This document shows positions 21,422-64,000 of a stretch of DNA of 64,000 nt, one piece after another. The translations under genes were made by a program, and so were the position numbers. Under the pieces are notes generated by a model. It did not search any database. It saw only the letters and a list, made by a program, of their open reading frames with translations, and was not told where the DNA came from. The first letter of the stretch is position 1. The number at the start of each line of letters is the position of its first letter. The stretch lies in NCBI RefSeq assembly GCF_058153355.1, contig NZ_CM177019.1; one strand, given 5' to 3'.

Positions 21422-21424
21422 TCC

Positions 21425-25213: not shown

Positions 25214-25225
25214 TGCTAATTCCTT

Positions 25226-31197: not shown

Positions 31198-31328
31198 AGT
31201 AGGCATTACTTCTTAATAGTGAAAAGGGGTTAGATAGTACCAAATGGGAAAATGTTAAGTAAGTACTTCTCTATATTCTTCAGGTAAACTATCAGCTGAT
31301 GGTTTATCTATACAAAAAAGGAGTCGGG

Positions 31329-43181: not shown

Positions 43182-43978
43182 AACGGATTAACGCTCTGAC
43201 AATTGCAGGCACTGATCCCAGTGGTGGTGCGGGGATTCAGGCAGATCTCAAAACGTTCTCGGCACTTGGTGCTTATGGTTGCTCAGTGATTACTGCACTG
43301 GTGGCGCAAAATACCCGTGGCGTACAGTCGGTGTATCGCATTGAGCCTGATTTTGTCGCCGCCCAGCTCGATTCGGTGTTCAGCGATGTGCGAATCGACA
43401 CCACTAAAATCGGTATGTTGGCGGAAACCGATATTGTTGAAGCGGTGGCAGAACGGTTGCAACATTATCAGATCCAAAACGTGGTACTCGACACCGTTAT
43501 GCTGGCAAAAAGCGGCGACCCTCTGCTTTCACCTTCGGCGGTTGCCACGCTGCGCAGTCGATTATTGCCACAGGTTTCATTAATAACGCCAAACTTGCCC
43601 GAAGCAGCTGCCTTGCTCGACGTGCCACACGCGCGCAACGAACAGGAAATGCTGGAACAAGGACGAGCGCTGTTAGCGATGGGCTGTGGCGCAGTGCTGA
43701 TGAAAGGCGGTCATCTGGATGATGAGCAAAGCCCGGACTGGCTGTTTACCCGAGAGGGGGAACAACGGTTTACTGCACCGCGCATTATGACCAAAAACAC
43801 CCACGGCACTGGTTGTACGATCTCTGCGGCGTTGGCTGTACTACGCCCGCGCCATACAAACTGGGCTGACACCGTTCAGGAGGCAAAAAGCTGGCTTTCA
43901 TCGGCGTTAGCCCAGGCCGACACGCTGGAAGTTGGTCACGGTATTGGTCCGGTTCACCACTTCCACGCGTGGTGGTGA
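43178..43978 (+). CDS. thiD: Hydroxymethylpyrimidine / phosphomethylpyrimidine kinase
   Basis: 266 aa; ATGA overlap with thiM. Confidence 0.9.
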
Positions 43979-44042
43979 GCACCTTACTATAGCTGCTTTG
44001 GTTATTGTCAGTATTTGGCGCTGACATTCAGGGATGAAACCA

Positions 44043-44861
44043 ATGCAGCTGAGAATCACCAGTCGAAAAAAATTCACCGCTTTATTATGCGCTCTTGGGC
44101 TAATTTCCATCGTTGCAATTTATCCGCGTCAGACGGTGAATTTTTTCTATTCGACAGCTATTCAGATTAAAGACTACATCCACTTCTACGGTTATCGCCC
44201 GGTTAAATCTTTCGCTATTCGCATTCCTGCCAGTTACACCATTCACGGAATAGATGTTTCGCGCTGGCAGGAGCGGATCGACTGGCAGCGGGTGGCTAAA
44301 ATGCGCGATAACGGTATTCGCTTGCAATTTGCCTTTATCAAGGCGACGGAAGGCGAAAAGCTGGTGGACCCGTATTTTTCGCGTAACTGGCAACTAAGCC
44401 GCGAAAATGGCCTGTTGCGTGGGGCGTATCATTATTTTTCCCCGTCGGTATCCGCCTCAGTTCAGGCGCGATTATTTCTGCAAACGGTGGATTTCTCACA
44501 AGGCGATCTCCCTGCCGTGCTGGACGTAGAAGAACGGGGAAAATTATCGGCAAAAGAATTACGCAAGCGGGTAAGTCAGTGGCTAAAAATGGTCGAAAAA
44601 CGCACGGGAAAAAAGCCGATTATTTACTCAGGAGCCGTTTTTTATCACACCAATCTGGCGGGCTATTTCAATGAATATCCGTGGTGGGTGGCTCACTATT
44701 ATCAACGTCGTCCGGACAATGACGGCATGGCCTGGCGCTTCTGGCAGCATTCCGACCGTGGACAGGTAGATGGCATTAATGGTCCGGTGGATTTTAATGT
44801 GTTTAATGGCACGGTGGAGGAGTTGCAGGCATTCGTTGGTGGGATTAAAGAAACGCCTTAA
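44043..44861 (+). CDS. yegX: GH25 lysozyme-like (muramidase) family protein YegX
   Basis: 272 aa from MQLRITSRKKF; N-terminal signal/TM segment. Confidence 0.8.
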   Translation: MQLRITSRKKFTALLCALGLISIVAIYPRQTVNFFYSTAIQIKDYIHFYGYRPVKSFAIRIPASYTIHGIDVSRWQERIDWQRVAKMRDNGIRLQFAFIKATEGEKLVDPYFSRNWQLSRENGLLRGAYHYFSPSVSASVQARLFLQTVDFSQGDLPAVLDVEERGKLSAKELRKRVSQWLKMVEKRTGKKPIIYSGAVFYHTNLAGYFNEYPWWVAHYYQRRPDNDGMAWRFWQHSDRGQVDGINGPVDFNVFNGTVEELQAFVGGIKETP

Positions 44862-44912
44862 ATAAGAAGCAGTGATATACTCCCACCAGACTCCCTGGCA
44901 GGAAAAAGACAA

Positions 44913-45659
44913 ATGGAACAAGCGCATACCCAGCTGATTGCCCAACTGAACGAACGTATTTTAGCGGCGGATAACACGCCGCTTTATATTAAGTTTGCCG
45001 AAACGGTGAAAAATGCCGTGCGCAGCGGGGTGCTGGAACATGGCAATATTTTACCCGGCGAGCGCGATTTAAGTCAGTTAACCGGCGTTTCGCGTATTAC
45101 GGTGCGCAAGGCGATGCAGGCGCTGGAAGAAGAGGGCGTGGTGACACGTTCGCGCGGCTACGGCACGCAGATTAATAACATCTTTGAATACTCGTTAAAA
45201 GAAGCGCGAGGATTTTCTCAGCAGGTGGTGTTGCGCGGGAAAAAGCCCGATACGCTATGGGTTAACAAGCGAATGGTTAAATGCCCTGAAGAGGTGGCGC
45301 AGCAATTGGCGGTCGAAGCGGGTAGTGATGTCTTTTTGCTTAAGCGTATTCGCTATGTTGATGAAGAAGCGGTCTCTATTGAGGAGTCGTGGGTTCCGGC
45401 GCATTTAATTCATGATGTTGATGCCATCGGAATCTCTCTTTATGACTACTTCCGCAGTCAGCATATTTTTCCAAAGCGTACCCGTTCCCGCGTTAGCGCC
45501 CGGATGCCGGATGCCGAGTTTCAGTCACATATTCAATTAGATAGTAAAATACCGGTGCTGGTGATCAAGCAAGTGGCGCTTGACCAACAGCAACGGCCTA
45601 TTGAGTACAGCATCAGCCACTGTCGCAGTGATCTATACGTTTTTGTGTGTGAGGAGTAG
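44913..45659 (+). CDS. yegW: GntR/HutC-family transcriptional regulator YegW
   Basis: 248 aa; N-terminal winged HTH (ERDLSQLTGVSRITVRKAMQALEEEG). Confidence 0.85.
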   Translation: MEQAHTQLIAQLNERILAADNTPLYIKFAETVKNAVRSGVLEHGNILPGERDLSQLTGVSRITVRKAMQALEEEGVVTRSRGYGTQINNIFEYSLKEARGFSQQVVLRGKKPDTLWVNKRMVKCPEEVAQQLAVEAGSDVFLLKRIRYVDEEAVSIEESWVPAHLIHDVDAIGISLYDYFRSQHIFPKRTRSRVSARMPDAEFQSHIQLDSKIPVLVIKQVALDQQQRPIEYSISHCRSDLYVFVCEE

Positions 45660-46598
45660 TTCCTCGCGGGTTGGCGCGCAATCACCGCCGCGATGCCCGA
45701 CAACCCACGACGCCACTGCATTGCCCAGCAATACGGCATCCGCCAGTGGCAAACCAGAGGCCAGTCCAGCTAATACGCCACCTGCATGACTGTCGCCCGC
45801 CCCAATGGTGTCTACAACTTGCGTTGGAAATGCCGGGATGCAGCCAGAAGCGTTATTGCTGAAATACCATGCGCCTTCTTTATCCAGACGGACGATCAAC
45901 GACGCGGCAAATTTCTCCTGCCATTGTTTGCCAAGTGTTGTTATCTCTGCGGATAAAGCAAAACGTTCGGCGGCAATCTCAGCCTCTTGACGATTGAGTG
46001 ACACTAAAGGTCGACAGGCCATGATCCGCGCCAGTAATGCATCCGGGATATCGCCAATACGTGGGCCAAAATCGATGAACGGCGTCACGTCTTGCAGACT
46101 CTCCAGCCATTCCACTAATAATTCACCGCAGGGCGAGGCCAGTTGATAACCGGAAAAATAGAGCAGGCTGCCAGGCGCAACGGTTAATCGCGCCAACCAT
46201 TCGCGATTCCACTGATTTTCCACACCACTGAACGACATAAACGTGCGTTCACCATCAGGCTCAACCAGCGCCAGACACCAGCCGTTATCGCCTTCGGCGT
46301 TATCGATGAGGCTGATTAATCCTTCTTTCGCCATCCGGTTACGAATAATTTCCGCCCACACACCCTGGCCGAGCGGCAGGGCATTACCCGCTTCGATACC
46401 GAGGCGATTTAACGCCACGGCAATATTCAGTGCACAGCCGCCAACGTTAACGCTCTGCTGTTTCAGTTCGATATCGCACCCACGCCAGGGTAGGGCATAA
46501 GCGTCGGCGATCACATCAATGACCGCCGCGCCGACGACCATCACCGGCTGACGCGTGGTTAATTCAGGCAGCAGCGTGTGTAATCGAGCGCCGCTCAT
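45633..46598 (-). CDS. yegV: PfkB-family carbohydrate/nucleoside kinase YegV
   Basis: 321 aa; GAGDSHAGG-type motif; converges on yegW with 27-bp overlap. Confidence 0.85.
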   Translation of the reverse strand: MSGARLHTLLPELTTRQPVMVVGAAVIDVIADAYALPWRGCDIELKQQSVNVGGCALNIAVALNRLGIEAGNALPLGQGVWAEIIRNRMAKEGLISLIDNAEGDNGWCLALVEPDGERTFMSFSGVENQWNREWLARLTVAPGSLLYFSGYQLASPCGELLVEWLESLQDVTPFIDFGPRIGDIPDALLARIMACRPLVSLNRQEAEIAAERFALSAEITTLGKQWQEKFAASLIVRLDKEGAWYFSNNASGCIPAFPTQVVDTIGAGDSHAGGVLAGLASGLPLADAVLLGNAVASWVVGHRGGDCAPTREELLLTHKNV

Positions 46599-47599
46599 AC
46601 CGCCTCCCGTTGTTGGCGATACTTCGCCAGCGCCGTGGCGTAATGATTAAAATCAAGCTGATTTACCGCATCCAGCTCCGTCTTAAACGCAGGATCGATA
46701 GCGTTAACGCCATGCAATGCGCCGCAAATCGCCGTCGCCATAGCGCCGATGGTGTCTGTGTCGCCGCCAAGATTGGCGCACAGAATGGCGCAGCGATTCG
46801 GGTCGGTTTGTGCCAGTTCAACCAGCGCAATGGCGCACGGAACGGACTCAATAGTGCTGGTACCTGCGCCAATGACCTGGTAAAGCTGTTCGCTGGCGGA
46901 TTCGGTGCCGTCGGCATTGCGCACAATTTTCAGCGCAATCTCCAGACGTGCTGCCAGTGAGGCGCTGAAGGTAGTGATGCGTTTTTGCTGTGCATGTCGC
47001 GCAATTGAAGGCAGTGAATCAACAATCGCTGACCAGCTTTCTCCGTCAATGGCACGAGAAACCGCCCATGCGATGACTACCGCGCCTGCCACCGCCAGAT
47101 CGGATTTATGAGTCGGGCTGGACGCCAGCGCTACATCATCAATAAAGGAATCAACATCACGCGCCGGAAGCAAACAACCTAATGGCGAGACGCGCATCGC
47201 TGCGCCGTTAGTCACGCCATTGTTTTCCAGTTCAGCAACGGGTTTACCGTCGCGAATGGCGTTAAGCGCAATCTTCGAAGTTGGGCCAAGCACGTTTTTG
47301 TTAAAGGCGTTGAAACGCAGCGCCCAGTCGAGAATATTACGCCCAATCAGATCCGGATCGATCTCGCCTTCACGTTCCAGTAACGCATCCGCCAGACACA
47401 GCGCCATTGAGGTATCGTCGGTGAATTCGGCGCGGTTAAAATAACAGGCCGCGTTATTCTCCTTTGGTCCAGGCAGAAAACGGTCAATCCAGCCAAAGTG
47501 TGCTTTAACGCGGCTGCGTGGCCAAAGCTCGGAGGGCATCCCCATCGCATCCCCTAACGCCTGCCCATAAAGAGCACCGAGAATACGTTCTGTTTTCAT
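46595..47599 (-). CDS. yegU: ADP-ribosylglycohydrolase-family protein YegU
   Basis: 334 aa; 4-bp overlap with yegV. Confidence 0.8.
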   Translation of the reverse strand: MKTERILGALYGQALGDAMGMPSELWPRSRVKAHFGWIDRFLPGPKENNAACYFNRAEFTDDTSMALCLADALLEREGEIDPDLIGRNILDWALRFNAFNKNVLGPTSKIALNAIRDGKPVAELENNGVTNGAAMRVSPLGCLLPARDVDSFIDDVALASSPTHKSDLAVAGAVVIAWAVSRAIDGESWSAIVDSLPSIARHAQQKRITTFSASLAARLEIALKIVRNADGTESASEQLYQVIGAGTSTIESVPCAIALVELAQTDPNRCAILCANLGGDTDTIGAMATAICGALHGVNAIDPAFKTELDAVNQLDFNHYATALAKYRQQREAV

Positions 47600-48873
47600 T
47601 TAACTTCCCCTTGTGTCAACGCAATATCGCGATCATCGACCTTGATAGCCGTAATTTCGTTGTCGGATTCGCGGAAAAAAATCATGAACAGCACGGCGAT
47701 AATGGCAATCATCACCGCGCCGAAAGTCCACATCCCGGACCAGTTGAAAGTCAGTCCGTTTACCGGTTCCGGATAAGCGAACATTTTCTCCATCATCACA
47801 CCGCCAAGACGATAGCCGAGCAAACTGCCGAATCCCTGGCAGCAGAGCGTGATCAGCCCCTGCGCAGCGGTACGCATATGCACGGGGGCTTTTTTATCGA
47901 CATAGATGTAAGCGGTAACGTAGTAAAAATCGTAACTTACTCCATGCAGCAAAATGCCAAGGAACAGTAACGCGTAGGTGAAATATTCATCCGCACTACC
48001 GTAAATAAAGAAGCCATAGCGGATCGCAGCGGTGACCAGACCAAGTAATAATACCTTTTTGATACCAAAGCGTTTGGTAAAAAACGGCAATGCCAGCATA
48101 AAGAAGATTTCAGAGAACTGGCCGAGCGTCATCCAGCCGGTGGCGTTTTTCATGCCGACTTCTGTCAGATAACCGTTGGCAAAGATGTAATAGAACGCCA
48201 GTGGCATCGCAAACAGGAATGAACAGAAGAAAAAGACGAGGAAGTTTTTATCGCGCAGCAGGATCAGCGCATCCAGGCCTAGCATGACTTTAATGTCCAT
48301 TTTGCCGGTGCTTTTTGGCGGCGTGTCGGGCAGGAAAAACGCAAACACACCGAGTAATGCGGAGCTTCCGGCGGTAATTAATAGTGGAATATTGGTCGGT
48401 GAGATATCGTCATATCCCAGCATCTGAGGCAGGAATCCGCAGACCAGGCCAGAGGCAATCCAGCCTATAGTCCCCAGTACGCGAATGCGCGGAAAATCGC
48501 GCTCCACATCCGGGACGTTAGCAAACGCGATGCTGTTAGTCAGCGCAATGGTCGGCATATAGGTCAATGAGTAGGCCAGCAGTAACGGGAAGAACCCGGC
48601 AAAAGTAGTCTGTTGCGCAGCGAAATACATCAGCACCGCACCAGCGAACATCAATACCGCCAGCACTTTCTGCGCCGAGAAAAAGCGGTCAGTGATGGAG
48701 CCAACCAGAATTGGCGACAGGATCGCCGCAATGGCGGTACAGGCATACGACCAGCCAATTTCCCCGGCACTAAAACCGCTTTTACTTAACCACAACCACA
48801 ATGGCACAAACCACGCGCCCCAGATAAACCATTCAACAAACATCATGAACGACAGCTTTGCTGTTGTTTTCAT
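47596..48873 (-). CDS. yegT: Nucleoside:H+ symporter family MFS transporter YegT
   Basis: 425 aa multi-TM; 4-bp overlap with yegU. Confidence 0.85.
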   Translation of the reverse strand: MKTTAKLSFMMFVEWFIWGAWFVPLWLWLSKSGFSAGEIGWSYACTAIAAILSPILVGSITDRFFSAQKVLAVLMFAGAVLMYFAAQQTTFAGFFPLLLAYSLTYMPTIALTNSIAFANVPDVERDFPRIRVLGTIGWIASGLVCGFLPQMLGYDDISPTNIPLLITAGSSALLGVFAFFLPDTPPKSTGKMDIKVMLGLDALILLRDKNFLVFFFCSFLFAMPLAFYYIFANGYLTEVGMKNATGWMTLGQFSEIFFMLALPFFTKRFGIKKVLLLGLVTAAIRYGFFIYGSADEYFTYALLFLGILLHGVSYDFYYVTAYIYVDKKAPVHMRTAAQGLITLCCQGFGSLLGYRLGGVMMEKMFAYPEPVNGLTFNWSGMWTFGAVMIAIIAVLFMIFFRESDNEITAIKVDDRDIALTQGEVK

Positions 48874-49129
48874 CTTTTAATTCCTTCATGACAGGTAATG
48901 TAAGGTACGCGATGACAATACCATTTAATAATACCTTTTAAATACCTTTGCGGTGAAAACTTGACCGCGGTAACATTTTTTCTGATGAATCGAGCCAACA
49001 GAAAACGCTGAAAAAACATCCAAAAGATGGAAAAACTCGCCTGTAACGACCAGGATTATGATTGCCCGCAAAAGGCGGGCCAGGACAATCCATAGCCGAT
49101 ATCCAATCGGAATTTACGGGAGCATAGTA

Positions 49130-50182
49130 ATGACAGATATTGCGCAGTTGCTTGGCAAAGACGCCGACAACCTTTTACAGCACCGTTGTATGACTATTCC
49201 TTCTGACCAGCTTTATCTCCCCGGACATGACTACGTAGACCGCGTGATGATTGACAATAATCGCCCGCCAGCGGTGTTACGTAATATGCAGACGTTGTAC
49301 AACACCGGGCGCCTGGCTGGCACAGGATATCTTTCTATTCTGCCGGTTGACCAGGGCGTTGAGCACTCTGCCGGAGCTTCATTTGCCGCTAACCCGCTCT
49401 ACTTTGACCCGAAAAACATTGTTGAACTGGCGATCGAAGCGGGCTGTAACTGTGTGGCGTCAACCTACGGCGTGCTGGCATCGGTATCGCGGCGTTACGC
49501 GCATCGCATTCCATTCCTCGTCAAACTTAATCACAACGAGACGCTAAGTTACCCGAATACCTACGATCAAACGCTGTATGCCAGCGTGGAGCAGGCGTTC
49601 AACATGGGCGCGGTGGCGGTTGGCGCGACCATCTATTTTGGCTCGGAAGAGTCACGTCGCCAGATTGAAGAAATTTCTGCGGCCTTTGAACGTGCGCACG
49701 AACTGGGCATGGTGACCGTGCTGTGGGCCTATTTGCGTAACTCCGCCTTTAAGAAAGATGGCGTTGATTACCATGTTTCCGCCGACCTGACAGGTCAGGC
49801 GAACCATCTGGCGGCAACCATAGGTGCAGATATCGTCAAACAAAAAATGGCGGAAAATAACGGCGGTTATAAAGCGATTAATTACGGTTATACCGACGAT
49901 CGCGTGTACAGCAAGTTGACCAGCGAAAACCCGATTGATCTGGTGCGTTATCAGTTAGCTAACTGCTATATGGGCCGGGCAGGGTTGATAAACTCCGGCG
50001 GTGCTGCAGGCGGTGAAACTGACCTCAGCGATGCAGTGCGTACTGCGGTCATCAACAAACGCGCTGGCGGAATGGGGCTGATTCTTGGACGTAAGGCGTT
50101 CAAGAAATCGATGGCTGACGGCGTGAAACTGATTAACGCCGTGCAGGACGTTTATCTCGATAGCAAAATTACTATCGCCTGA
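49130..50182 (+). CDS. fbaB: Class I fructose-bisphosphate aldolase
   Basis: 350 aa from [16 protein letters not shown]; ORF track extends 24 codons upstream. Confidence 0.9.
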
Positions 50183-50204
50183 TACGCCTCATACGAACAG
50201 CACT

Positions 50205-50336
50205 ACCCCGTAGGGCGGATAAGGCGTTCACACCGCATCCGGCAACCTATGCCTGATGCGACGCTGAAGCGTCTTATCATGCCTACACAGCGCTGCCACG
50301 TATGCCGGATAAGGCGTTTACGTTGCATCTGGCATA
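50205..50336. repeat. Cluster of REP/BIME extragenic palindromes
   Basis: Three REP-like units (gtagggcggataaggcgttcacaccgcatccggcaa and relatives). Confidence 0.6.
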
Positions 50337-50357
50337 AAAACACGCGCACTTCGTTAC

Positions 50358-50384
50358 GGCTTCCCCCGGGAGGCCGTTTTTTTT
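50358..50384 (+). terminator. Intrinsic terminator downstream of fbaB
   Basis: Hairpin ggcttcccccgggaggcc followed by an 8-T run. Confidence 0.65.
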
Positions 50385-50439
50385 ACCTGTCATTCTGATT
50401 AATTTTCATATTGTCGTTTTTGTGATCGTTATCTCGACA

Positions 50440-51366
<927 letters not shown>

Positions 51367-51367
51367 A

Positions 51368-52644
<1,277 letters not shown>

Positions 52645-52653
52645 GGACGGTAT

Positions 52654-53103
52654 ATGACTAACCTGTTTGTTCGTAGCGGAATTTCTTTTGTCGATCGTAG
52701 CGAAGTTTTAACCCATATCGGTAATGAGATGATCGCGAAAGGTGTGGTTCATGAAACCTGGCCACAGGCATTAATTGCCAGAGAAGCAGAATTCCCCACC
52801 GGGATAATGCTTGAACAGCACGCCATTGCAATACCGCATTGTGAGGCGATTCATGCTAAGTCGTCAGCTATTTATCTGTTAAGACCGGCGAATAAAATAA
52901 AGTTTCAGCAAGCTGATGATGATAACGACGTGGCGGTGTCGTTGATTATCGCGCTGATTGTCGAAAATCCGCAGCAGCAACTGAAGCTTTTGCGGTGCTT
53001 ATTTGGCAAGTTGCAGCAACCAGATATCGTTGAAACGCTAATCACCATTTCTGAATCGCAATTAAAGGAATATTTCACACAGCATATTTTAGATTCCGAA
53101 TAA
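52654..53103 (+). CDS. gatA: Galactitol PTS enzyme IIA
   Basis: 149 aa. Confidence 0.85.
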   Translation: MTNLFVRSGISFVDRSEVLTHIGNEMIAKGVVHETWPQALIAREAEFPTGIMLEQHAIAIPHCEAIHAKSSAIYLLRPANKIKFQQADDDNDVAVSLIIALIVENPQQQLKLLRCLFGKLQQPDIVETLITISESQLKEYFTQHILDSE

Positions 53104-53143
53104 CCAAAAACCTCTGTACCAATAAAAAGGATTGATTATGAAA

Positions 53144-53428
53144 CGCAAGATAATTGTCGCTTGCGGAGGCGCGGTTGCGACCTCTACGATGGCGGCGGAA
53201 GAAATTAAAGAGTTGTGCCATAGCCATAATATCCCCGTTGAAGTAATCCAGTGTCGGGTTAATGATAATGAAATAGAAACCTATATGGATGGCGTACATC
53301 TTATTTGTACTACCGCCAGAGTTGACCGCAGTTTTGGCGATATTCCGTTAGTTCACGGCATGCCTTTTGTTTCTGGTGTCGGTATCGAAGCATTACAAAA
53401 TAAAATTCTGACTATCTTACAGGGGTGA
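53144..53428 (+). CDS. gatB: Galactitol PTS enzyme IIB
   Basis: 94 aa from [16 protein letters not shown]. Confidence 0.85.
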
Positions 53429-53431
53429 CCT

Positions 53432-54787
53432 ATGTTTTCAGAAGTCATGCGTTATATTCTCGACCTCGGCCCTACGGTCATGTTGCCGATTGTCATCATT
53501 ATTTTTTCTAAGATATTAGGCATGAAGGCAGGCGATTGCTTTAAAGCGGGTCTGCATATCGGGATTGGCTTTGTTGGTATCGGCCTGGTGATTGGCTTAA
53601 TGCTGGATTCCATTGGCCCGGCGGCGAAAGCAATGGCGGAAAATTTCGACCTGAATCTGCATGTGGTCGATGTCGGCTGGCCGGGCTCTTCACCAATGAC
53701 CTAGGCGTCGCAAATTGCGCTGGTGGCGATTCCGATTGCGATTCTGGTTAACGTGGCGATGCTACTGACCCGTATGACGCGGGTGGTAAATGTTGATATA
53801 TGGAATATCTGGCATATGACCTTCACCGGCGCATTGCTGCATCTGGCAACCGGTTCATGGATGATAGGGATGGCGGGTGTGGTAATTCACGCGGCGTTTG
53901 TTTATAAGCTCGGCGACTGGTTTGCCCGCGATACCCGAAATTTCTTTGAGCTGGAAGGCATTGCTATTCCGCACGGTACGTCGGCGTATCTGGGGCCAAT
54001 TGCGGTGCTGGTCGATGTTATCATCGAGAAAATCCCAGGGGTTAACCGTATTAAATTTAGCGCCGACGATATTCAGCGCAAATTTGGCCCATTTGGCGAA
54101 CCTGTCACCGTGGGCTTTGTGATGGGGCTGATTATCGGCATCCTCGCGGGTTACGATGTCAAAGGTGTATTACAGCTGGCGGTAAAAACGGCGGCAGTTA
54201 TGCTGCTGATGCCACGGGTGATTAAACCCATCATGGATGGTTTAACGCCCATCGCTAAGCAGGCCCGTAGTCGTTTACAGGCGAAGTTCGGCGGTCAGGA
54301 GTTCCTGATTGGCCTTGATCCGGCGTTGCTGCTGGGGCATACGGCGGTGGTATCGGCAAGCCTGATTTTTATCCCGCTCACCATTTTAATTGCTGTTTGT
54401 GTTCCGGGTAATCAGGTACTGCCGTTTGGCGACCTTGCCACCATCGGCTTCTTTGTTGCGATGGCAGTTGCCGTGCATCGTGGAAATCTGTTCCGCACCT
54501 TAATCTCGGGTGTCATCATTATGAGCATCACCCTGTGGATCGCGACGCAAACTATTGGTTTGCACACCCAACTGGCGGCTAATGCTGGGGCGTTAAAAGC
54601 CGGGGGCATGGTGGCTTCAATGGATCAGGGCGGTTCTCCCATTACCTGGTTACTGATTCAGGTTTTCTCCCCGCAAAATATTCCCGGTTTCATTATTATC
54701 GGTGCCATTTATCTTACCGGTATTTTCATGACCTGGCGTAGAGCGCGCGGCTTTATTAAACAAGAGAAAGCCGTTCTCGCAGAATAA
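53432..54787 (+). pseudogene. gatC: Galactitol PTS enzyme IIC interrupted by an in-frame amber (TAG) codon at 53702..53704
   Basis: ORFs 53432..53704 and 53723..54787 are in the same frame separated by a single TAG; the codon encodes Trp (TGG) in intact GatC as I recall it. Confidence 0.7.
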
Positions 54788-55326
54788 TTTTTACCTGAGG
54801 GGGAGTTTATCCCCCTTAATAATCAGGAGTTTTTATGAAATCAGTGGTGAATGATACTGATGGTATCGTACGCGTTGCCCAACGAGTCATTCCTGAAATT
54901 AAACATCAGGATGAGGTGCGGGTAAAAATTGCCAGCTCGGGATTATGTGGTTCCGATTTACCCAGAATTTTTAAAAATGGTGCACATTATTATCCAATAA
55001 CGTTAGGCCATGAATTTAGCGGCTATATTGATGCTGTGGGATCCGGTGTTGATGATTTACATCCTGGCGATGCGGTTGCCTGTGTGCCGTTATTACCCTG
55101 TTTTACTTGTCCAGAGTGTCTGAAAGGGTTTTATTCCCAGTGCGCAAAATATGATTTTATTGGCTCACGGCGTGATGGTGGGTTTGCCGAATATATTGTC
55201 GTTAAGCGGAAAAATGTCTTTGCTCTACCTGCGCATATGCCTATTGAGGATGGGGCTTTTATTGAACCGATTACCGTTGGCCTGCATGCTTTCCATTTAG
55301 CGCAAGGTTGTGAGAATAAAAACGTT

Positions 55327-55339
55327 ATTATTATTGGTG
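55327..55339. repeat. Left copy of 13-bp target site duplication attattattggtg
   Basis: Identical 13-mer at 56766..56778. Confidence 0.8.
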
Positions 55340-56765
55340 TAATGCCAGTCAGTTAAGCAACTGACTGGCTCTTTTTCGGGGCTGTGGGGTATTTCCAGGG
55401 CCTCTCCTTTACCACTCTCGGGAAGGCCCTTTCCCTTCTTGTCGGTAATTTCACAAGTTGTCCCATACTTGCAAGATCGCGCATCAGCTCCGGTATACGT
55501 CCCGGTGAAGCGCCCTGCAATGTCATCAGCATTCTCATCACCATTCCGCATGATTCTGAGAAACTCAGTTGATTCGGCCAGTAACCTTTCAGATGTTCCG
55601 CCATTTTAATCATCTGATATCTCACCAGATTATAAGCCAGTAAGACACCCCACAGCTCTTGCTCCACAAGCTCCGGCTTTTTACTTCTCAGCGTCAGCCT
55701 GCTCAGTTGCATCGTCTGTTTTATCTCCCTGTATCCCAGTTCGATTTCCCAGCGATGACTGTACAGATCCGCCATTTCTCCTCCGGGGAAGCGCATGGCG
55801 TCCGTCATCGACGTCAGCAGATGGCAGACTTTTCCTTTGCGCGTCACGGTCAGCAGGCGGGCTGTCACTTCATTTCCCAGTCCCGGCCACTTTTTTCGTG
55901 CCTGCGGGCTGGTTTTCAGCTTCACCAGATGATCGCCTTTACCCAGTTTTCTGATCTCTTCATATTGCGCTCCCTTTCTGAGAGGTATCATCCAGTGGCG
56001 GTGTTCTCCCGCCAGGCTCCAGGCATTTAACAGTCCCAGTGAGTAATAACCTTTATCCATTAACGTCAGAGTGTTATCGCCGGTTTGTTCTATAAGTTGC
56101 TCAGCAAGCTCATTTTCGCTGTTCTTCATCGTGCCGAAGGCTGCAGCCGTCAGCAGATGGCTGGTCAGTTCCATCTGGCAGACCATTTTGACCTGCGGGT
56201 AGAGCGCCGGGTTCCCGGCATGTGTCTGGCGGGGGAAGGCTGCATCGTTCTCTGGTGTATCCGGTGTGCGCCAGAACACACCATCGATGGCCAGCAGGGT
56301 CAGGCCGCACCAGTGCGGATGCGGCGTGGCGTTATGCCAGAGCTGCGCTGTTTTCGTGAACACGCGGCGGACAGCCTCACTTCCCAGGCGCTGGCGGGCC
56401 TGAATAACGGCACTGGGGGCAACGAAGGGGCGATTGCCCGGCAGCATGATGTCCAGGCGATTCACAATCTGGTGAAGAGGTTCTTTACGCTCAAGCGCCA
56501 TGCCAACAATACACCAGACCATCATTTCGAGGGGAAGACGGCGCTTGCGTAGCGTTACAGTACCTGATTCGGCAAGGCAACGAGAGATGAGTTCGGGGTC
56601 GAGGTAATCCCCCAGAGAAGTCAGTGGGTTACGCAGAGAATCGTAACGGGATACCAGATCAAGAGCCTGTCCAATGTGCATAAAAAAATCCGGAAACAAG
56701 TGAGCGTTTCCGGATTCTTACACAGCCACTGGATCGGTCAACTGATCCTTAACTGATCGGCATTA
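55340..56765 (-). mobile_element. IS4 insertion sequence (1426 bp)
   Basis: Terminal inverted repeats taatgccagtcagttaag / taatgccgatcagttaag; single transposase ORF; flanked by 13-bp direct duplication. Confidence 0.85.
55353..56681 (-). CDS. IS4 transposase (DDE family)
   Basis: 442 aa from [20 protein letters not shown]; ORF track starts at an upstream TTG. Confidence 0.85.
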
Positions 56766-56778
56766 ATTATTATTGGTG
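56766..56778. repeat. Right copy of 13-bp target site duplication attattattggtg
   Basis: Identical to 55327..55339. Confidence 0.8.
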
Positions 56779-57413
56779 CCGGAACCATTGGCCTGCTGGC
56801 CATTCAGTGCGCTGTCGCGCTGGGAGCAAAGAGTGTGACGGCTATCGACATTAGCTCAGAAAAACTGGCACTGGCAAAATCTTTCGGTGCGATGCAAACA
56901 TTTAACAGCCTTGAAATGAGCGCGCCGCAAATGCAGCCCGTTTTACGCGAGCTGCGCTTTAATCAGCTTATCCTCGAGACGGCTGGCGTCCCGCAAACCG
57001 TCGAACTGGCGGTAGAGATTGCCGGGCCTCATGCCCAGCTGGCGCTGGTGGGCACGTTGCATCAGGATCTGCATTTAACATCGACAACGTTTGGCAAAAT
57101 ATTACGTAAAGAGCTGACGGTTATCGGCAGTTGGATGAACTACTCCAGCCCTTGGCCGGGGCAGGAGTGGGAAACGGCGAGCCGGTTGCTGACAGAACGT
57201 AAGTTAAGCCTGGAGCCATTAATCGCTCACCGTGGAAGCTTTGAAAGCTTCGCCCAGGCGGTGCGTGACATCGCTCGTAATGCTATGCCGGGCAAAGTGT
57301 TGCTTATTCCCTGAAACCGCGGGCCAGCGTGATGCTGGCCCGGTATTGTGCAAAACAGATCATTCACCAATGGTCCCCCTTCGTTTACACTAGCCACAAT
57401 TGAATATGGGTAA

Positions 57414-58193
57414 ATGACGATGAATTCATTCGAGCGAAGGAATAAGATCATCCAATTAGTGAATGAACAGGGAACCGTGCTTGTTCAGGATCTGGCGGGA
57501 GTATTTGCTGCCTCGGAAGCGACAATCCGTGCCGATTTGCGCTTTCTCGAACAAAAAGGCGTGGTTACGCGCTTTCATGGCGGTGCGGCGAAAATAATGT
57601 CCGGTAATAATGAAACCGAGACCCAGGAAGTCGGGTTTAAAGAGCGATTTCAGCTCGCCAGCGCGCCGAAAAACAGAATAGCGCAGGCGGCAGTCAAAAT
57701 GATCCACGAAGGGATGACCGTTATTCTCGACAGCGGAAGTACGACAATGCTTATCGCCGAAGGTTTAATGACCGCCAAAAATATCACGGTGATTACCAAC
57801 AGTCTCCCGGCGGCGTTTGCCCTTTCCGAAAATAAAGACATTACTCTGGTCGTCTGTGGTGGCACGGTCCGCCATAAAACGCGCTCGATGCATGGCTCCA
57901 TTGCCGAGCGTTCATTGCAGGATATTAATGCCGATTTAATGTTTGTCGGTGCTGATGGTATTGATGCGGTTAATGGTATTACGACCTTTAATGAAGGTTA
58001 TTCGATTAGCGGTGCGATGGTCACAGCCGCTAATAAAGTGATTGCCGTTCTCGATTCATCGAAATTTAACCGTCGCGGTTTTAATCAGGTACTGCCAATC
58101 GAAAAAATTGACATTATTATTACTGATGATGCCGTGTCAGAGGTGGATAAACTGGCATTGCAGAAAACACGGGTGAAATTAATTACGGTGTAG
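57414..58193 (+). CDS. gatR: DeoR-family galactitol operon repressor (intact)
   Basis: 259 aa uninterrupted; N-terminal HTH. Confidence 0.85.
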   Translation: MTMNSFERRNKIIQLVNEQGTVLVQDLAGVFAASEATIRADLRFLEQKGVVTRFHGGAAKIMSGNNETETQEVGFKERFQLASAPKNRIAQAAVKMIHEGMTVILDSGSTTMLIAEGLMTAKNITVITNSLPAAFALSENKDITLVVCGGTVRHKTRSMHGSIAERSLQDINADLMFVGADGIDAVNGITTFNEGYSISGAMVTAANKVIAVLDSSKFNRRGFNQVLPIEKIDIIITDDAVSEVDKLALQKTRVKLITV

Positions 58194-58204
58194 CATTGTT
58201 CTTT

Positions 58205-58237
58205 ATGCCGGATAAGGTGTGTACACCGAATCCGGCA
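58205..58237. repeat. REP element
   Basis: atgccggataaggtgtgtacaccgaatccggca. Confidence 0.55.
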
Positions 58238-58274
58238 ACACTGATACTCCCTGAATTAAGAAAGGGAAATTTGA

Positions 58275-59174
58275 TTAACGCAATAATGGACAATCCGGTG
58301 GTAATCGACAGCGCAATGCTGCCGGAAGTATTTCAATATGGAAGTTTTGTCCACTCAACGGTTCGCCATCAAGATTAAAGGTAATTTCGTGTGGCGCTTG
58401 TATATCGAACCACGCCGAAGCACCTTCGATAATATTCGGGTTATCTTCGTCAGATTTTAAGGTTGATACGAGAGCCGGAAGAATTTCATCGCCGGTGAAA
58501 ATGCGTAGTTGCAGCAAGCCGTCGTTAATTAATGCGTTCGGGCACAATTGCTGACCGCCACCTGCCTGACGGCCGTTACCAATACCAATGACTAGTGCGT
58601 CACCTTGCCAGTGAAAGTTTTCACCGCGGATTTCACAACGGTCCGGTTGCAGTGTATCCATGCGCATTAAGCCGTGAATGATGTAAGAGACGCCACCCAG
58701 CGCGGCTTTTAATTTTTCCGGCGTTTCTGTGGTAATACGTGTCCCAAACCCACCCGTTGCCATATTAATAAAACAGGTTTTTTTGTTGACCTGCGCCATA
58801 TCAATCGCAATAGCATCACCAGCAATTGCTAGTTTCAGCGCCTTATCCAGTGCCTCAGGTATACCCACGCTGGTCGCGAAATCGTTCGCTGTACCTAGTG
58901 GCAAAATCCCCAGCGCGGGTATGTCATCGCCCTCACACTGAATCAGCGCCGAGGAAACTTCATTAATAGTGCCATCGCCGCCACCGGCAATTACCGTTGC
59001 GACGCCCAGCTTCCGGGCCTCTTCTACAAATCGGGCGGCATCGCCTTTCTCCCAGGTGACCCGCACATGGATCGTCATTCCTTCCTCGCGCAACAGCATA
59101 ATTGCTTCGCGCAAGGGTTGATTGTCAGTACTTTTGCCGTTAAGAATCAGTAAGCTGGCGGGAAATTCTGCCAT
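58275..59174 (-). CDS. yegS: Lipid kinase YegS (diacylglycerol kinase catalytic domain family)
   Basis: 299 aa; GGDGT motif. Confidence 0.85.
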
Positions 59175-59257
59175 AATCGTATGCCTTTATGATTGGTCTG
59201 TAGATAGTGTAGAGCAGAAAAGAAAAGGCGGAGTCAGAACAGGATGAAAATCGGAGG

Positions 59258-59390
59258 ATAAAAAATCAGTTCAAGGATGGGGAATTCAGTGGTTACCAGT
59301 AAGGGGGGCAACGGTACACTCGGTTTTTATCGGCATAAATGATCACTGAAAGCACTTAAGCATTATTTTACTGTGGATTCAGCGTGGCAG
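59258..59390. repeat. Degenerate copy of the P2-type attachment core plus int-proximal arm
   Basis: By-eye alignment to 60321..60455, estimated 70-75% identity: ataaaaaat, accagta.ggggg, caacggtaca, cggcataaat, cactgaaagc, tactgtgga. Confidence 0.5.
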
Positions 59391-59530
59391 CGAACATTAA
59401 CGGTAGTCAGGGACAAACTTCAAAAGAGCATATGCATCATATTCAACAAAGCAATGGCATCCTCAATGTACGATTCCAATTATATTAAATAATTCCTATG
59501 AGGTTATCTGTGATAGGCCTCCATGTCTGT

Positions 59531-59552
59531 ATTTCCTACTTATGTAGGAAAT
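59531..59552. promoter_or_regulatory. Perfect 22-bp palindrome (candidate operator) upstream of yegR
   Basis: atttcctac-ttat-gtaggaaat, ~19 bp upstream of a TATAAT hexamer at ~59571..59576. Confidence 0.4.
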
Positions 59553-59656
59553 TCTGCACAAAACATTTATTATAATCCTATTCAATAATGACAATGATGT
59601 CATTATTATATTTCAACACTAGAGAGTGTCGTTGGTGTTTAATGGGGGAAGGTGAG

Positions 59657-59974
59657 ATGAAAAAGACAGTTGCTATATCATTAATTAGTGTTTTTCTTAT
59701 GTCTGGTTGTGCTGTGCATAATGATGAGACAAGTATCGGTAAATTCGGTCTTGCCTATAAAAGTAATATCCAGCGTAAACTCGATAACCAATACTACACT
59801 GAAGCCGAAGCATCTTTAGCCAGGGGCAGAATATCTGGTGCGGAAAATATAGTGAAAAATGATGCAGCTAATTTCTGTGTTACTCAGGGCAAAAAAATGC
59901 AGATAGTTAACCTGAAGACTGAAGGGGCAGGATTACATGGCGTCGCGCGTCTGACATTCAAATGTGGAGAGTGA
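59657..59974 (+). CDS. yegR: Small lipoprotein YegR
   Basis: 105 aa from MKKTVAISLISVFLMSGC; lipobox LMSGC. Confidence 0.8.
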   Translation: MKKTVAISLISVFLMSGCAVHNDETSIGKFGLAYKSNIQRKLDNQYYTEAEASLARGRISGAENIVKNDAANFCVTQGKKMQIVNLKTEGAGLHGVARLTFKCGE

Positions 59975-60322
59975 GAATAGATTCAAGACTACCATGGACA
60001 CATCCATTTTTATCTCTGATAAGGTATTCTTCAACACCATTATTGAATGTGAGTAATAATGACAAGCAGATAGATGAAACTACAGCAGAATTTTTATTTT
60101 ATGCGGCTATCAGAAAATGATGGCATAAATATTCCTATGCTTTAGCTTCATTTTTTGTAAGCGTCAAACATGCGCGTTCTGGCTGTGCGTAGCCGGACCC
60201 TGTGCGAGCACGATGCCGTTAAGTGAAAGGCATCGTGCTATGAAGGGGAATTCTATCGATATGGTCAATGGAAGGAGGTAACCAGGTATGAATCCTTCCT
60301 TCTGTTTCATTGAATTACGCAT

Positions 60323-60349
60323 AAAAAATAAGCCCGTGTAAGGGAGATT
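60323..60349. other. P2-type attachment core at the host/prophage junction (attL)
   Basis: aaaaaataagcccgtgtaagggagatt, the 27-bp P2 core as I recall it, ~80 bp from the int stop. Confidence 0.7.
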
Positions 60350-60428
60350 TAGGGTGTCACCAGTAGGGGCTTTCAACGGTACAATGCGGGTTTGAGCGGC
60401 ATAAATTACCACTGAAAGCCCTTAAACG

Positions 60429-61442
60429 TTACTCTACTGTGGACACTGTGTGGACACTCTCGGCCTCAGTACCACCTCTTAGCGGATTAAGAGAAATGGC
60501 GTCCTGAAGGTACTCTGGCGCAAAGTGAGCGTAAACCATAGTTTGCTCAATCCGCGTGTGACCTAGTATCCGTTGTAGCGTGATAATACTTCCTCCATTA
60601 ATCATGAAATGAGTGGCAAAGCTGTGCCTTAGTGCATGTGTGGCTTGCCCCATTGGCAAATCCGGTTTTATTGCTTTCATTGTTCGTCTGAAGCGAGGGT
60701 AATCAGCATCAGGGAATAAAAAACCTCGTTTGTTATCCGCGATCATTTTGGCAACAGCCTCTGAGATCGGGACGGTGCGTGGTTTGTTTGTTTTCGTTTT
60801 AACAAACGTGACGCGGTTATGGATGATATTTTCTGCTTTCAAACGAGCTGCTTCTCCCCAACGTGCTCCAGTACTCAGGCAAAGAATCGCAATCTTTTTA
60901 TTGTCGCCGTCAAGAGCAGCAAGCAGTAAGGCAATTTCTTCCTGCGTGAGATAGCCTGTGTCTGGTTTTTCCTCCTTAAGCCTTTTTGTCCCTCTGATAG
61001 GGTGCTCACCAAAGAATAACTCCGCTTCAATCAGGGCTGTAAACATGCCGCTAATACATGTTAAATCACGATTGATACTCGAAGGTTTAATACCCTGACT
61101 TCTTCGGGTGGCGCAGTACTGGCTGATAAGCGATTTCGTAATTTGAAATGCGCATGGGTCATTCGTTATTTTTGTGAAGATTTCAATTTTTCCAAGATTA
61201 GATTTCCCATGCTCTTCGTGTTTACCCTTTAAATCCCACCAGATCTGTGTCAGCTCCGACAGACGTCGCTTGTCTGTTGGTTTTGATAGCCATTCTTTAT
61301 TGTGGTGGTTGTACAACGTGTATTTCTCGAAAGCGACAGCTTCGCTTTTCTTATCAAACTTCCTACGGATGCGTTTTCCATTACGTCCAGTAGGGCGGAT
61401 GTCCACTTCATATCGACCATCATCGAGTTTTTTGATTGCCAT
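60429..61442 (-). CDS. int: P2-type tyrosine integrase
   Basis: 337 aa; catalytic RxxR...HxxRH...Y signature in the C-terminus. Confidence 0.9.
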   Translation of the reverse strand: MAIKKLDDGRYEVDIRPTGRNGKRIRRKFDKKSEAVAFEKYTLYNHHNKEWLSKPTDKRRLSELTQIWWDLKGKHEEHGKSNLGKIEIFTKITNDPCAFQITKSLISQYCATRRSQGIKPSSINRDLTCISGMFTALIEAELFFGEHPIRGTKRLKEEKPDTGYLTQEEIALLLAALDGDNKKIAILCLSTGARWGEAARLKAENIIHNRVTFVKTKTNKPRTVPISEAVAKMIADNKRGFLFPDADYPRFRRTMKAIKPDLPMGQATHALRHSFATHFMINGGSIITLQRILGHTRIEQTMVYAHFAPEYLQDAISLNPLRGGTEAESVHTVSTVE

Positions 61443-61557
61443 CAGAAAACCCTCCGAGTGGTGTGTTTTTTGGCGACTACTAATCGCTTTTTTCGTGGTG
61501 GCTGAAATTTAGCCACCAATAGTAGGCACTTGTGATGAATATATTCACGATGAATTG

Positions 61558-61857
61558 TTAACCAGTCTTTTGACCGGAGTGGGGCGACGTTGTTTCGTTT
61601 TGCCCAAAGTGTGCGAGAGCGGGCGCAATTTGCCCGGACTCAGGAGCGATCTGATTGGTCATGAACCATAAAGTGTATTTGGTGAATTGTGGGGTCTGCA
61701 GGATGTTCATCATGACATCTGTTGGAGGTGTTGAACGACCACTTTCATAGTAACTCAGCGTGCCATACGGAACCCCTGTTAAATCAGCAAGTTGTTGTCT
61801 GCTCAAATACTCTGATTTTCGCATTAAGACTATCTTCTCGCTTATCGTGTTTGACAT
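61558..61857 (-). CDS. C: P2-type immunity repressor C
   Basis: 99 aa with HTH (LSRQQLADLTGVPYGTLSYYESGRSTP). Confidence 0.85.
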   Translation of the reverse strand: MSNTISEKIVLMRKSEYLSRQQLADLTGVPYGTLSYYESGRSTPPTDVMMNILQTPQFTKYTLWFMTNQIAPESGQIAPALAHFGQNETTSPHSGQKTG

Positions 61858-61971
61858 GGTGTTTAGATCTCAATAGTATTTAGTTTAGATGTAGATTGTT
61901 TAGTGCTTGGATGTGGGCACTAAAAGGCATTATAAGGCATTAAACGCAATTCATGAGGGCTGGAGGACGAC
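61858..61971. promoter_or_regulatory. P2 Pc/Pe divergent promoter-operator switch region
   Basis: Divergent C and cox starts; tttagat-type direct repeats (tttagatctc, tttagtttagatgtagattgtttag). Confidence 0.6.
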
Positions 61972-62247
61972 ATGAGCAAGCAAGTAACACTCATGACTGA
62001 TGCGATTCCTTATCAGGAGTTCGCAAAACTAATAGGAAAATCGACAGGAGCGGTTCGTCGGATGATCGATAAAGGAAAGCTGCCTGTAATTGATATGACC
62101 GATCCACAATCAGCTTCAGGTCGTGCAGGTGAATATTGGGTATACCTTCCGGCATGGAATAACGGACTAAAACTGGCTTATGAAAGCCGCCCTAAAGAGA
62201 TTCGTGACGGCTGGTTGATGTGGTTAGGTCTCGGTGAACCACGTTAA
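61972..62247 (+). CDS. cox: P2 Cox (excisionase / repressor of Pc)
   Basis: 91 aa, first gene of the early rightward operon. Confidence 0.85.
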   Translation: MSKQVTLMTDAIPYQEFAKLIGKSTGAVRRMIDKGKLPVIDMTDPQSASGRAGEYWVYLPAWNNGLKLAYESRPKEIRDGWLMWLGLGEPR

Positions 62248-62428
62248 GGAGAACCGTATGAATGAGCCTCGTTGTATTGCTCAGTTACTGCGTAACGAAA
62301 GCCCCAGGGCGATTGACTTCAACATCACCCACGGTAAGGGGCGTAAGGGAATCATTATCCGCACCAAAAAACAGAGTCCGTTAAAAAAGGCTCTGACCTT
62401 TCTGAAAAGCCGGAGGGTATGGAAATGA
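62234..62428 (+). CDS. P2 orf78-like small protein
   Basis: 64 aa ORF overlapping the cox end, in P2 gene order. Confidence 0.6.
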   Translation: MNHVKENRMNEPRCIAQLLRNESPRAIDFNITHGKGRKGIIIRTKKQSPLKKALTFLKSRRVWK

Positions 62429-62925
62429 CAGTGATGACGCTCAATCTCGTTGAAAAACAGCCAGCAACTATGCGCCGGATAATTGGTAAGCATCTGGCCG
62501 TCCCTCGCTGGCAGGAGACATGCGATTATTATAATCAGATGATGGAACGTGAACGGCTAACGGTTTGCTTCCATGCGCAGTTAAAACAGCGTCACGCAAC
62601 GATGCGTTTTGAAGAAATGAACGACGTCGAACGTGAACGACTGGTATGTGCAATTGATGAATTGCGTGGGGCATTCTCAAAACGCCGTCAGGTTGGCGCA
62701 AGTGAGTATGCATATATTAGTTTTTTAACAGTCAGTCAGCGTCGCACTTTATTTATGCACGCACGACTGACAGAAAAAGAATTTAACCAGCCATACTGGC
62801 GAATTAATGAAGAATCATGTTACTGGCGTGATGCTTTATTCCGTGCATTACGTGAATTATTCAGTCTGTTTGAGTATGCACCGACAATTCTGACGTCGGT
62901 AAAACCAGAGCAATATCTGCATTAA
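62425..62925 (+). CDS. B: P2 replication protein B
   Basis: ~166 aa; position after cox/orf78. Confidence 0.75.
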   Translation: MTVMTLNLVEKQPATMRRIIGKHLAVPRWQETCDYYNQMMERERLTVCFHAQLKQRHATMRFEEMNDVERERLVCAIDELRGAFSKRRQVGASEYAYISFLTVSQRRTLFMHARLTEKEFNQPYWRINEESCYWRDALFRALRELFSLFEYAPTILTSVKPEQYLH

Positions 62926-62955
62926 GTAATTAACCAGAGTTTTTAACGCACTTAA

Positions 62956-63213
62956 TTGTGCGGGGCTTCTTTTTGCCTGGAGAAAGTCATGCATACAGTT
63001 TCTGAAAATCAGTGCGGTATATACGCATTACTGCTGCAACAGGCCAGAACCGAAGCACAGGCTGACGCTGCGACGCGCTTTTCTTCTCATCTTGACGCCA
63101 TGATTCGCCACATCACAAAGGCGGAGTTATCCCGCGTGGAGATAGTCGAGCTGCTCAGTCAGGAGTCGGAAAAATTTCACAATATCGGATTGTCTCGTGG
63201 GGAGGTGCTTTGA
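62956..63213 (+). CDS. P2 orf80-like protein
   Basis: 85 aa ORF in the early operon. Confidence 0.6.
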
Positions 63214-63515
63214 TGTCCTGTTCTCATTCAGTTGTATTACTGAATAACGCCTTAAAAATCGCCGTTATGGAAAATGGCGATTTGTCTCTTATTCAACTTG
63301 GTCTTGATAAAGAAAAGCGCGACATAACTGAATCTGTTATCGCGATTTATCAGAGCGAATTAAACCTCCTGTCTGATGTGATCAATTTACTTGTGAAACG
63401 CGCTGTATTTCACAAGCAAATTTCCTCAGTGGATGAACTGACAAAATTAACGACAGAACTCGCCAGCTATTGCGCTGATGAATTTAAGAAACTGAACGAC
63501 AAAAGGAACTGGTAA
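63210..63515 (+). CDS. P2 orf81-like protein
   Basis: 101 aa; 4-bp overlap with previous ORF. Confidence 0.6.
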
Positions 63516-63739
63516 TGCCGGACAACGTAGATTTCATTCAGGAACAACAGGCTGAATTACTGGAGCGCCAGATTAACGCGGCAAGGGTAAAACATTGCGG
63601 TGCTTCTGCGCTGGTTTGCGAAGAGTGTGACGCGCCAATACCTGCTGCCCGTCGTGCGGCTTATCCGTCAGCCACGCGTTGTGTTTCCTGTCAGTCAGTC
63701 TTTGAAGCAAAAAACAAACATTACCGGAGAACGGCATGA
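63515..63739 (+). CDS. P2 orf82-like TraR/DksA-family zinc-finger protein
   Basis: 74 aa with C-x2-C ... C-x2-C motif. Confidence 0.65.
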   Translation: MPDNVDFIQEQQAELLERQINAARVKHCGASALVCEECDAPIPAARRAAYPSATRCVSCQSVFEAKNKHYRRTA

Positions 63740-64000
63740 GTATTCGTATTGAAATTGGCGAACGTTATGTCGTTACCAGTGACAGCTTCCAGTTTATTCT
63801 CCACGAGAAAAAGAGAGCGGAAAGCGGTAAAAACGCCGGTCAGGAATGGCTGGCGGTGGTTGGTTATTACCCGAAATTAAGCCAGCTCGTTTCCGGCCTG
63901 ATGCATCACGATATTCTGACCGGAAGCGCAAAGTCTTTTGCTGATTTAAACGCGCAGGTTGAGCAACTCAGCAAGCGTTGTTCAGAGGCTTTTGGCTCAT
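63736..64000 (+). CDS. P2 orf83-like protein, truncated by the window end
   Basis: ATG at 63736 overlapping the orf82 stop; frame open to position 64000. Confidence 0.5.
   Translation, partial: MSIRIEIGERYVVTSDSFQFILHEKKRAESGKNAGQEWLAVVGYYPKLSQLVSGLMHHDILTGSAKSFADLNAQVEQLSKRCSEAFGS

Follow-up and report, generated by a model that had tools for sequence, protein, structure and literature searches.

Organisation of the gat operon

The window (the whole 64-kb stretch of DNA analysed here) carries the gat genes on the plus strand in the order gatY-gatZ-gatA-gatB-gatC-gatD-gatR, collinear with annotated E. coli (Table 1). Two of these genes, gatC and gatD, are interrupted. Small in-frame length differences were seen in two others: gatA has a one-codon deletion (149 vs 150 aa) and gatB is called as 96 aa vs 94 aa in the reference. 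Database entries also include 547-aa GatB-GatC fusions with both PF02302 and PF03611 (P0065-P0072, on up to 20 contigs), which would be alleles in which the gatB stop has been lost and two PTS subunits are read as one protein.

Table 1 Features of the gat region, in window positions (a dot marks features given no strand)
Feature	Position	Strand	Evidence and remarks
gatY (tagatose-bisphosphate aldolase subunit), full length	50499-51353	+	284-aa F_bP_aldolase in identical contigs L048, L049; collinear with L001
gatZ, full length, 420 aa	51382-52644	+	PF08013; collinear with L001
gatA (EIIA), 149 aa	52654-53103	+	PF00359; one codon shorter than 150-aa reference
gatB (EIIB)	53138-53428	+	PF02302
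gatC N-terminal fragment, codons 1-90	53432-53701	+	TIGR00827 EIIC-GAT profile positions 1-82
Former Dcm site, now CCTAG	53700-53704	.	Sequence; CCTGG in intact alleles
Amber codon TAG in place of Trp91 (TGG)	53702-53704	+	Sequence, translation, alignment, probes
gatC codons 92-451 and stop, frame open, A196V	53705-54787	+	TIGR00827 positions 84-407
gatD 5' part, 505 nt	54835-55339	+	NF007642 galactitol-1-phosphate 5-dehydrogenase profile positions 1-169; collinearity with L001/L048 ends at 55339
Target-site duplication, left copy, 13 bp ATTATTATTGGTG	55327-55339	.	Single copy in L048
IS4 element, 1,426 bp	55340-56765	-	Transposase, inverted repeats, absence from L048
IS4 transposase ORF	55353-56699	-	NF033592 IS4 family transposase, E = 9e-91
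IS4 terminal inverted repeats, 18 bp	55340-55357 and 56748-56765		
Target-site duplication, right copy	56766-56778	.	Comparison with L048
gatD 3' part, 536 nt	56779-57314	+	NF007642 positions 189-344; collinear with L001, L048
gatR (DeoR-family repressor), full length, 259 aa	57414-58193	+	

A single nonsense codon interrupts gatC

The gatC frame runs from an ATG at 53432 to a TAA at 54785-54787 (1356 nt, 451 codons). A TAG at 53702-53704 lies 270 nt (90 codons) past the ATG and in the same frame as the TAA, and the translation around it reads ...GWPGSSPMT*ASQIALVAIPIA... (also given as GWPGSSPMT*ASQIALVAIP). A preliminary description of this DNA had proposed that the two gatC fragments share one frame and are separated by this amber codon alone, with no frameshift, and the coordinates and translation agree with it. 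The nearest intact E. coli allele among 5,426 complete E. coli genomes, that of NZ_CP074749 (L001), aligned over 1,356 nt at 99.6% identity with 0 gaps, and no further stop or frameshift was found across the whole gene in this alignment. The two alleles are separated by five substitutions; W91* (G->A at 53703) and A196V are the two that alter the protein sequence. The column of residue 196 is variable among GatC homologs (Ala or Thr) and, judging from this comparison, A196V is probably harmless.

The C-terminal piece alone still scored 554 bits against the GatC family profile (TIGR00827/PF03611; cut-off 542.2), with 709.8 bits for the intact neighbour. An uninterrupted functional frame is nevertheless absent, the amber standing at codon 91 of 451, so that the locus is a pseudogene of the GatC family; that it is a single-base nonsense pseudogene is as good as certain. 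Translation would end after 90 of the 451 residues, within the invariant motif GWPGSSPMTWASQ, and a functional EIIC permease should be absent. With no such permease, galactitol is predicted to be neither taken up nor phosphorylated.

TGG is the ancestral codon

A 47-nt probe carrying TGG matched 4,481 of the 5,426 complete E. coli genomes, and 3,163 records were found at ≥99% identity. The same probe carrying TAG gave 0 matches among the 5,426 genomes, and W91* is therefore rare in absolute terms. Trp91 was invariant in all 119 GatC homologs of at least 400 aa, down to 69% identity (including Salmonella, Cronobacter, Klebsiella, Kluyvera, Kosakonia and Gilliamella), where it falls within the invariant motif GWPG(S/A)(S/A)PMTWASQIALVAIP. 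The intact sequence PMTWASQ, which the preliminary description had given, was thus correct, and its proposal of a single TGG to TAG change is borne out by the two probes.

The identical gatC sequence is present in the independent SRA assemblies SRR31441161 and SRR28786219, and the same 90-aa gatC fragment is recorded on 410 contigs, finished genomes included. A Shigella origin of the window was considered, as an exact match was lacking among the complete E. coli genomes and S. dysenteriae headed the matches to the 90-aa fragment. It was rejected: exact matches to the window are SRA assemblies, the nearest gat alleles are from E. coli, and a single IS element was found in the 64 kb. No evidence was found in support of a sequencing or assembly error at the TAG. 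Given the identity of the independent assemblies and the occurrence of the same codon in finished NCBI genomes, we attach practically no weight to this explanation.

An IS4 insertion splits gatD

The second interrupted gene, gatD, is split by a complete IS4 element, with its DDE transposase, terminal inverted repeats and target-site duplication all present. The two parts of gatD (505 + 536 nt) add up to the intact 1,041 nt, and no second IS element was found among the ORFs checked in the 64-kb window. The empty site is seen in a sister contig from SRR28786219 (L048), which matches the window at 100% identity along 15.2 kb (43723-55339 and 56766-60349). That contig carries the amber codon, an uninterrupted gatD (346 aa) and no IS4.

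The order of the two lesions was not derivable from the window alone and was settled by the sister contig. Because L048 carries the amber without IS4 and is otherwise identical over these intervals, the order read from the sequences is amber first and IS4 later, in an already non-functional operon. Such an order is biologically sensible in that loss of the permease first would remove uptake, and galactitol metabolism has been reported to inhibit the growth of gat-expressing E. coli (PMC10878103). The later insertion would have left the operon doubly inactivated. It had been suggested previously that a single point reversion would restore the transporter. This holds for the reading frame of the transporter but does not extend to galactitol use, since gatD remains split by the 1,426-bp IS4 and reversion of the amber would not restore galactitol catabolism.

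The mutated base lies in a former Dcm site

All intact alleles examined read CCTGG at gatC nt 269-273, so that the mutation fell in what was ancestrally a Dcm site (aCCTGGg); the TGG-bearing 47-mer used as a probe likewise contains CCTGG. The G at 53703 pairs with the methylatable second C of the bottom-strand CCAGG, and a G->A change at the fourth base of CCTGG is equivalent to C->T at this second C. Intact gatC has five CCWGG sites, of which three are in-frame ACC-TGG (codons 91, 406 and 435) where TAG results from a C->T change on the bottom strand. In lacI, Dcm sites are known as amber hotspots (Coulondre et al. 1978, reviewed in PMC12606429), and Vsr very-short-patch repair counters the deamination of 5-methylcytosine (PMC2715241). 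If the lineage is Dcm-methylated, as we assume, the 5-methylcytosine opposite 53703 would deaminate to thymine and, on escaping Vsr repair, turn TGG into TAG. The dcm and vsr genes themselves presumably lie outside the 64-kb window, going by K-12 gene order. As the changed base sits in a Dcm site and pairs with 5-methylcytosine, we infer that deamination escaping Vsr is the most likely origin of W91*, a conclusion that we consider probable and hold with moderate confidence.

An ordinary G:C->A:T transition, arising by replication error or by deamination of an unmethylated base, would give the same codon; its position in a Dcm site would then be coincidental, and the mutation would persist since loss of gatC is tolerated or selected. 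Such transitions make up 32 of the 105 stop-creating single-base changes in gatC and are hence common anyway, but the changed base here is exactly the partner of the methylated C. The S. dysenteriae type 1 sequences (L003, L005, L007, L011) also argue against coincidence: they have two stops in gatC, W91* and W406*, each as ACCTAG and both at ACC-TGG Dcm sites.

W91* recurs on different gatC haplotypes

At least seven gatC haplotypes, one of them that of S. dysenteriae type 1, carry W91*, in every case as TAG; they differ mutually at 10-52 positions. The checked W91* haplotypes lie closer to intact E. coli alleles, with 0-5 other differences: the window differs from its nearest intact allele (L001) at 4 other positions, L002 from L013 at 3, L006 from L015 at 5 and L009 from L014 (strain 104) at none. 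On the evidence of these alleles, we take W91* to have had separate origins in several lineages of E. coli and Shigella.

The same distribution would result if W91* had a single origin and spread between lineages by a very short recombination tract. Within the sampled alleles there is no variable site between gatC nt 201/264 and 324, so that a tract of less than about 120 bp would leave no marker, and the divergence of up to 5% between haplotypes of the gat region may reflect frequent recombination. At least six transfers would however be required, all of them shorter than 120 bp and no two into the same background. Between L009 and an intact allele that one base is the sole difference. Other nonsense codons are likewise spread over several haplotypes but occur there as two different stops, explicable only by repeated mutation. 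Spread by short tracts is therefore very improbable, and we retain independent origins for W91*. The gat region is itself diverse, with up to ~5% DNA divergence between haplotypes (window 47424-59300 compared with L002-L011) and a nearly invariant GatC protein; WP_000490679, for example, is common to gatC alleles ~30 nt apart. Such divergence is unusually high for a core locus and may perhaps point to frequent recombination in this part of the chromosome.

All 11 gatC nonsense truncations tested occur in the collection. W91* is the most frequent of them (410 contigs), followed by W83* (249), W435* (236), R169* (217), W163* (141), W124* (99), W406* (91), W143* (88), W127* (76), Q94* (62) and W369* (14); the matches to W83* include Shigella sonnei by record names. 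The presence of all 11 is in keeping with an ordinary transition, as is the finding that codons outside Dcm sites (W83, W124, W127, W143 and W163) have been mutated on 3-8 haplotypes each, while the first place of W91* counts against it. Recurrence on several haplotypes was ruled out as proof of a hotspot by the control codons, which recur as well. Contig counts (on average ~246 for Dcm and ~118 for non-Dcm codons) were dropped as a measure of rate because clonal sampling dominates them. Recurrence mostly reflects the frequency of natural gatC loss and the depth of E. coli sampling.

Since recurrence by itself is no proof of a hotspot, the choice between TAG and TGA was compared in its place, with haplotype clusters as a proxy for independent events; the sample was not random and covered no more than 10 places for each allele. 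The Dcm Trp codons (91, 406 and 435) gave 15 TAG and 3 TGA clusters, and the non-Dcm Trp codons (83, 124, 127, 143 and 163) gave 14 and 14 (Fisher two-sided p = 0.03, on a small sample). W91 alone was TAG in 7 clusters and TGA in 0 (one-sided p = 0.017 against the non-Dcm baseline), and all three TGA events among the Dcm codons fell at W406. The choice of stop codon thus lends moderate support to a roughly five-fold Dcm effect, and the seven TAG haplotypes out of seven at W91 are not what an ordinary transition would lead one to expect from the even split at non-Dcm codons. We consider the ordinary transition possible but rather unlikely, and 5-methylcytosine deamination remains our preferred origin for W91*. 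A separate bias, opposite in direction to that of the Dcm codons, was observed at the non-Dcm codon W83 (GGC TGG CCG; L017-L024), where the TGA:TAG ratio over eight haplotypes was 6:2.

Residual function and reversibility of the lesion

GatC might still work if the UAG were read through by a suppressor tRNA or by near-cognate decoding, or if a split permease were assembled from the 90-aa piece and a 354-aa piece restarting at GTG 53723. The downstream frame is open over 360 codons with only one missense change, and suppressor status is not visible from the window, where no tRNA genes, suppressor tRNAs included, were found. The 99.6% identity to an intact allele means, however, that the lesion may be recent, and the open downstream frame is then no evidence of function. 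The stop interrupts an invariant motif, and no Shine-Dalgarno-like sequence was seen by eye upstream of GTG 53723. The clone has also later lost gatD by IS4 insertion, and S. dysenteriae has added a second stop and IS1 insertions; such continued decay of the operon is what one expects once selection on a gene has ceased. Both read-through and a split permease are thus highly unlikely, and gatC is best regarded as inactive.

We also considered whether, in natural E. coli populations, galactitol use could be switched quasi-reversibly by mutation at codon 91. In the forward direction, deamination of 5-methylcytosine would speed up CCTGG->CCTAG. In the mutant CCTAGG both strands contain CTAGG, and Vsr is reported to promote CTAGG->CCAGG changes (PMC2715241). 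Were Vsr to act on the bottom strand, the outcome would be a true reversion of TAG to TGG, which might then be faster than usual. If true, this would add a point-mutation route to the cycling between gat-negative and gat-positive states seen in the mouse gut, but we regard the idea as speculative and improbable.

Sequences flanking the operon

Two other regions of the window were recorded. The segment at 60315-64000, after yegR, belongs to a P2-like prophage and represents its left end; at this point L001 and L048 go on to yegQ instead. Besides a tyrosine integrase (60429-61442, minus strand) it encodes an HTH repressor, DUF5405 proteins and a Cox-like protein. Many E. coli genomes have prophage ends that match it at 99.9% identity, but it is absent from L048. 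On the minus strand at 17765-29023 lie three consecutive very large ORFs of 1,218, 1,262 and 1,265 aa, upstream of a metG-sized ORF (29164-31206), and their position suggests genes of the yehI/molR type.

Comparison with known systems

As a whole, the reading of this locus as a TGG->TAG pseudogene of Dcm origin, recurrent in other lineages and followed by IS4 insertion, is in our view very likely correct. Its components are of known kinds throughout (a nonsense pseudogene, a Dcm-type transition and IS-mediated decay), with no new mechanism or system. What is added to the preliminary description is the Dcm context, the recurrence of W91* in other lineages and the second lesion in gatD. From its sequence, the strain is predicted to be galactitol (dulcitol)-negative through two independent lesions, so that a single reversion would not restore the trait. 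The locus also illustrates, in natural genomes, how a nonsense mutation at a Dcm site has recurred among lineages of E. coli and Shigella. The many kinds of gatC nonsense alleles common in public genomes agree with experiments on gut-favoured loss of galactitol uptake.

The parallel with the Dcm ambers of lacI is one of mechanism: in both cases a G:C->A:T change at the methylated second C of CCWGG gives an amber codon, and 5-methylcytosine deamination with escape from Vsr is the expected route. The lacI hotspots are CAG->TAG changes on the coding strand of CCAGG, whereas in gatC it is the non-coding strand of CCTGG that bears the methylated C, and the change is TGG->TAG. Rates were measured in lacI, while the excess in gatC is inferred from natural alleles and is modest (~5:1 TAG:TGA, p = 0.03).

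In the mouse gut, selection favours loss of gat, and natural isolates vary in whether they use galactitol (PMC5850726, PMC10878103). The gatC frameshift of K-12 MG1655 and the gat-negative mutants from the mouse gut resemble the present case in gene and outcome, namely loss of the EIIC permease and a galactitol-negative phenotype; in the gut such a loss brings a benefit or is tolerated, and point or compensatory mutations have been seen to revert it (PMC5850726, PMC10878103). The alleles differ: they are IS insertions, indels of 1-2 bp, or changes from G to A on the plus strand of the genome. W91* was sought among the mouse-gut gatC stop-gains of PMC10878103 and is not one of them, these being plus-strand G->A changes of a different class; in our reading they correspond to C->T in the coding strand of gatC and are thus different stop mutations. 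The driver in K-12 is constitutive expression from gatR::IS, in contrast to the intact gatR of the window. The recurrence of W91* fits published work in which the gut tolerates or favours E. coli that no longer takes up galactitol.

A further counterpart is S. dysenteriae type 1 (e.g. strain 1617; CP026774, CP026777, CP061527; accessions identified in PMC7819885), where the operon has the identical W91* amber and has since acquired other lesions. Its gatC is of a different haplotype (45-46 nt differences), which argues for an independent origin of W91*. In CP061527 the region downstream of gatC has been replaced. Decay has gone further in S. dysenteriae type 1, with W406*, IS1 at gatZ/gatA and loss of gatD in some genomes, whereas the operon in the window carries the amber and one IS4.
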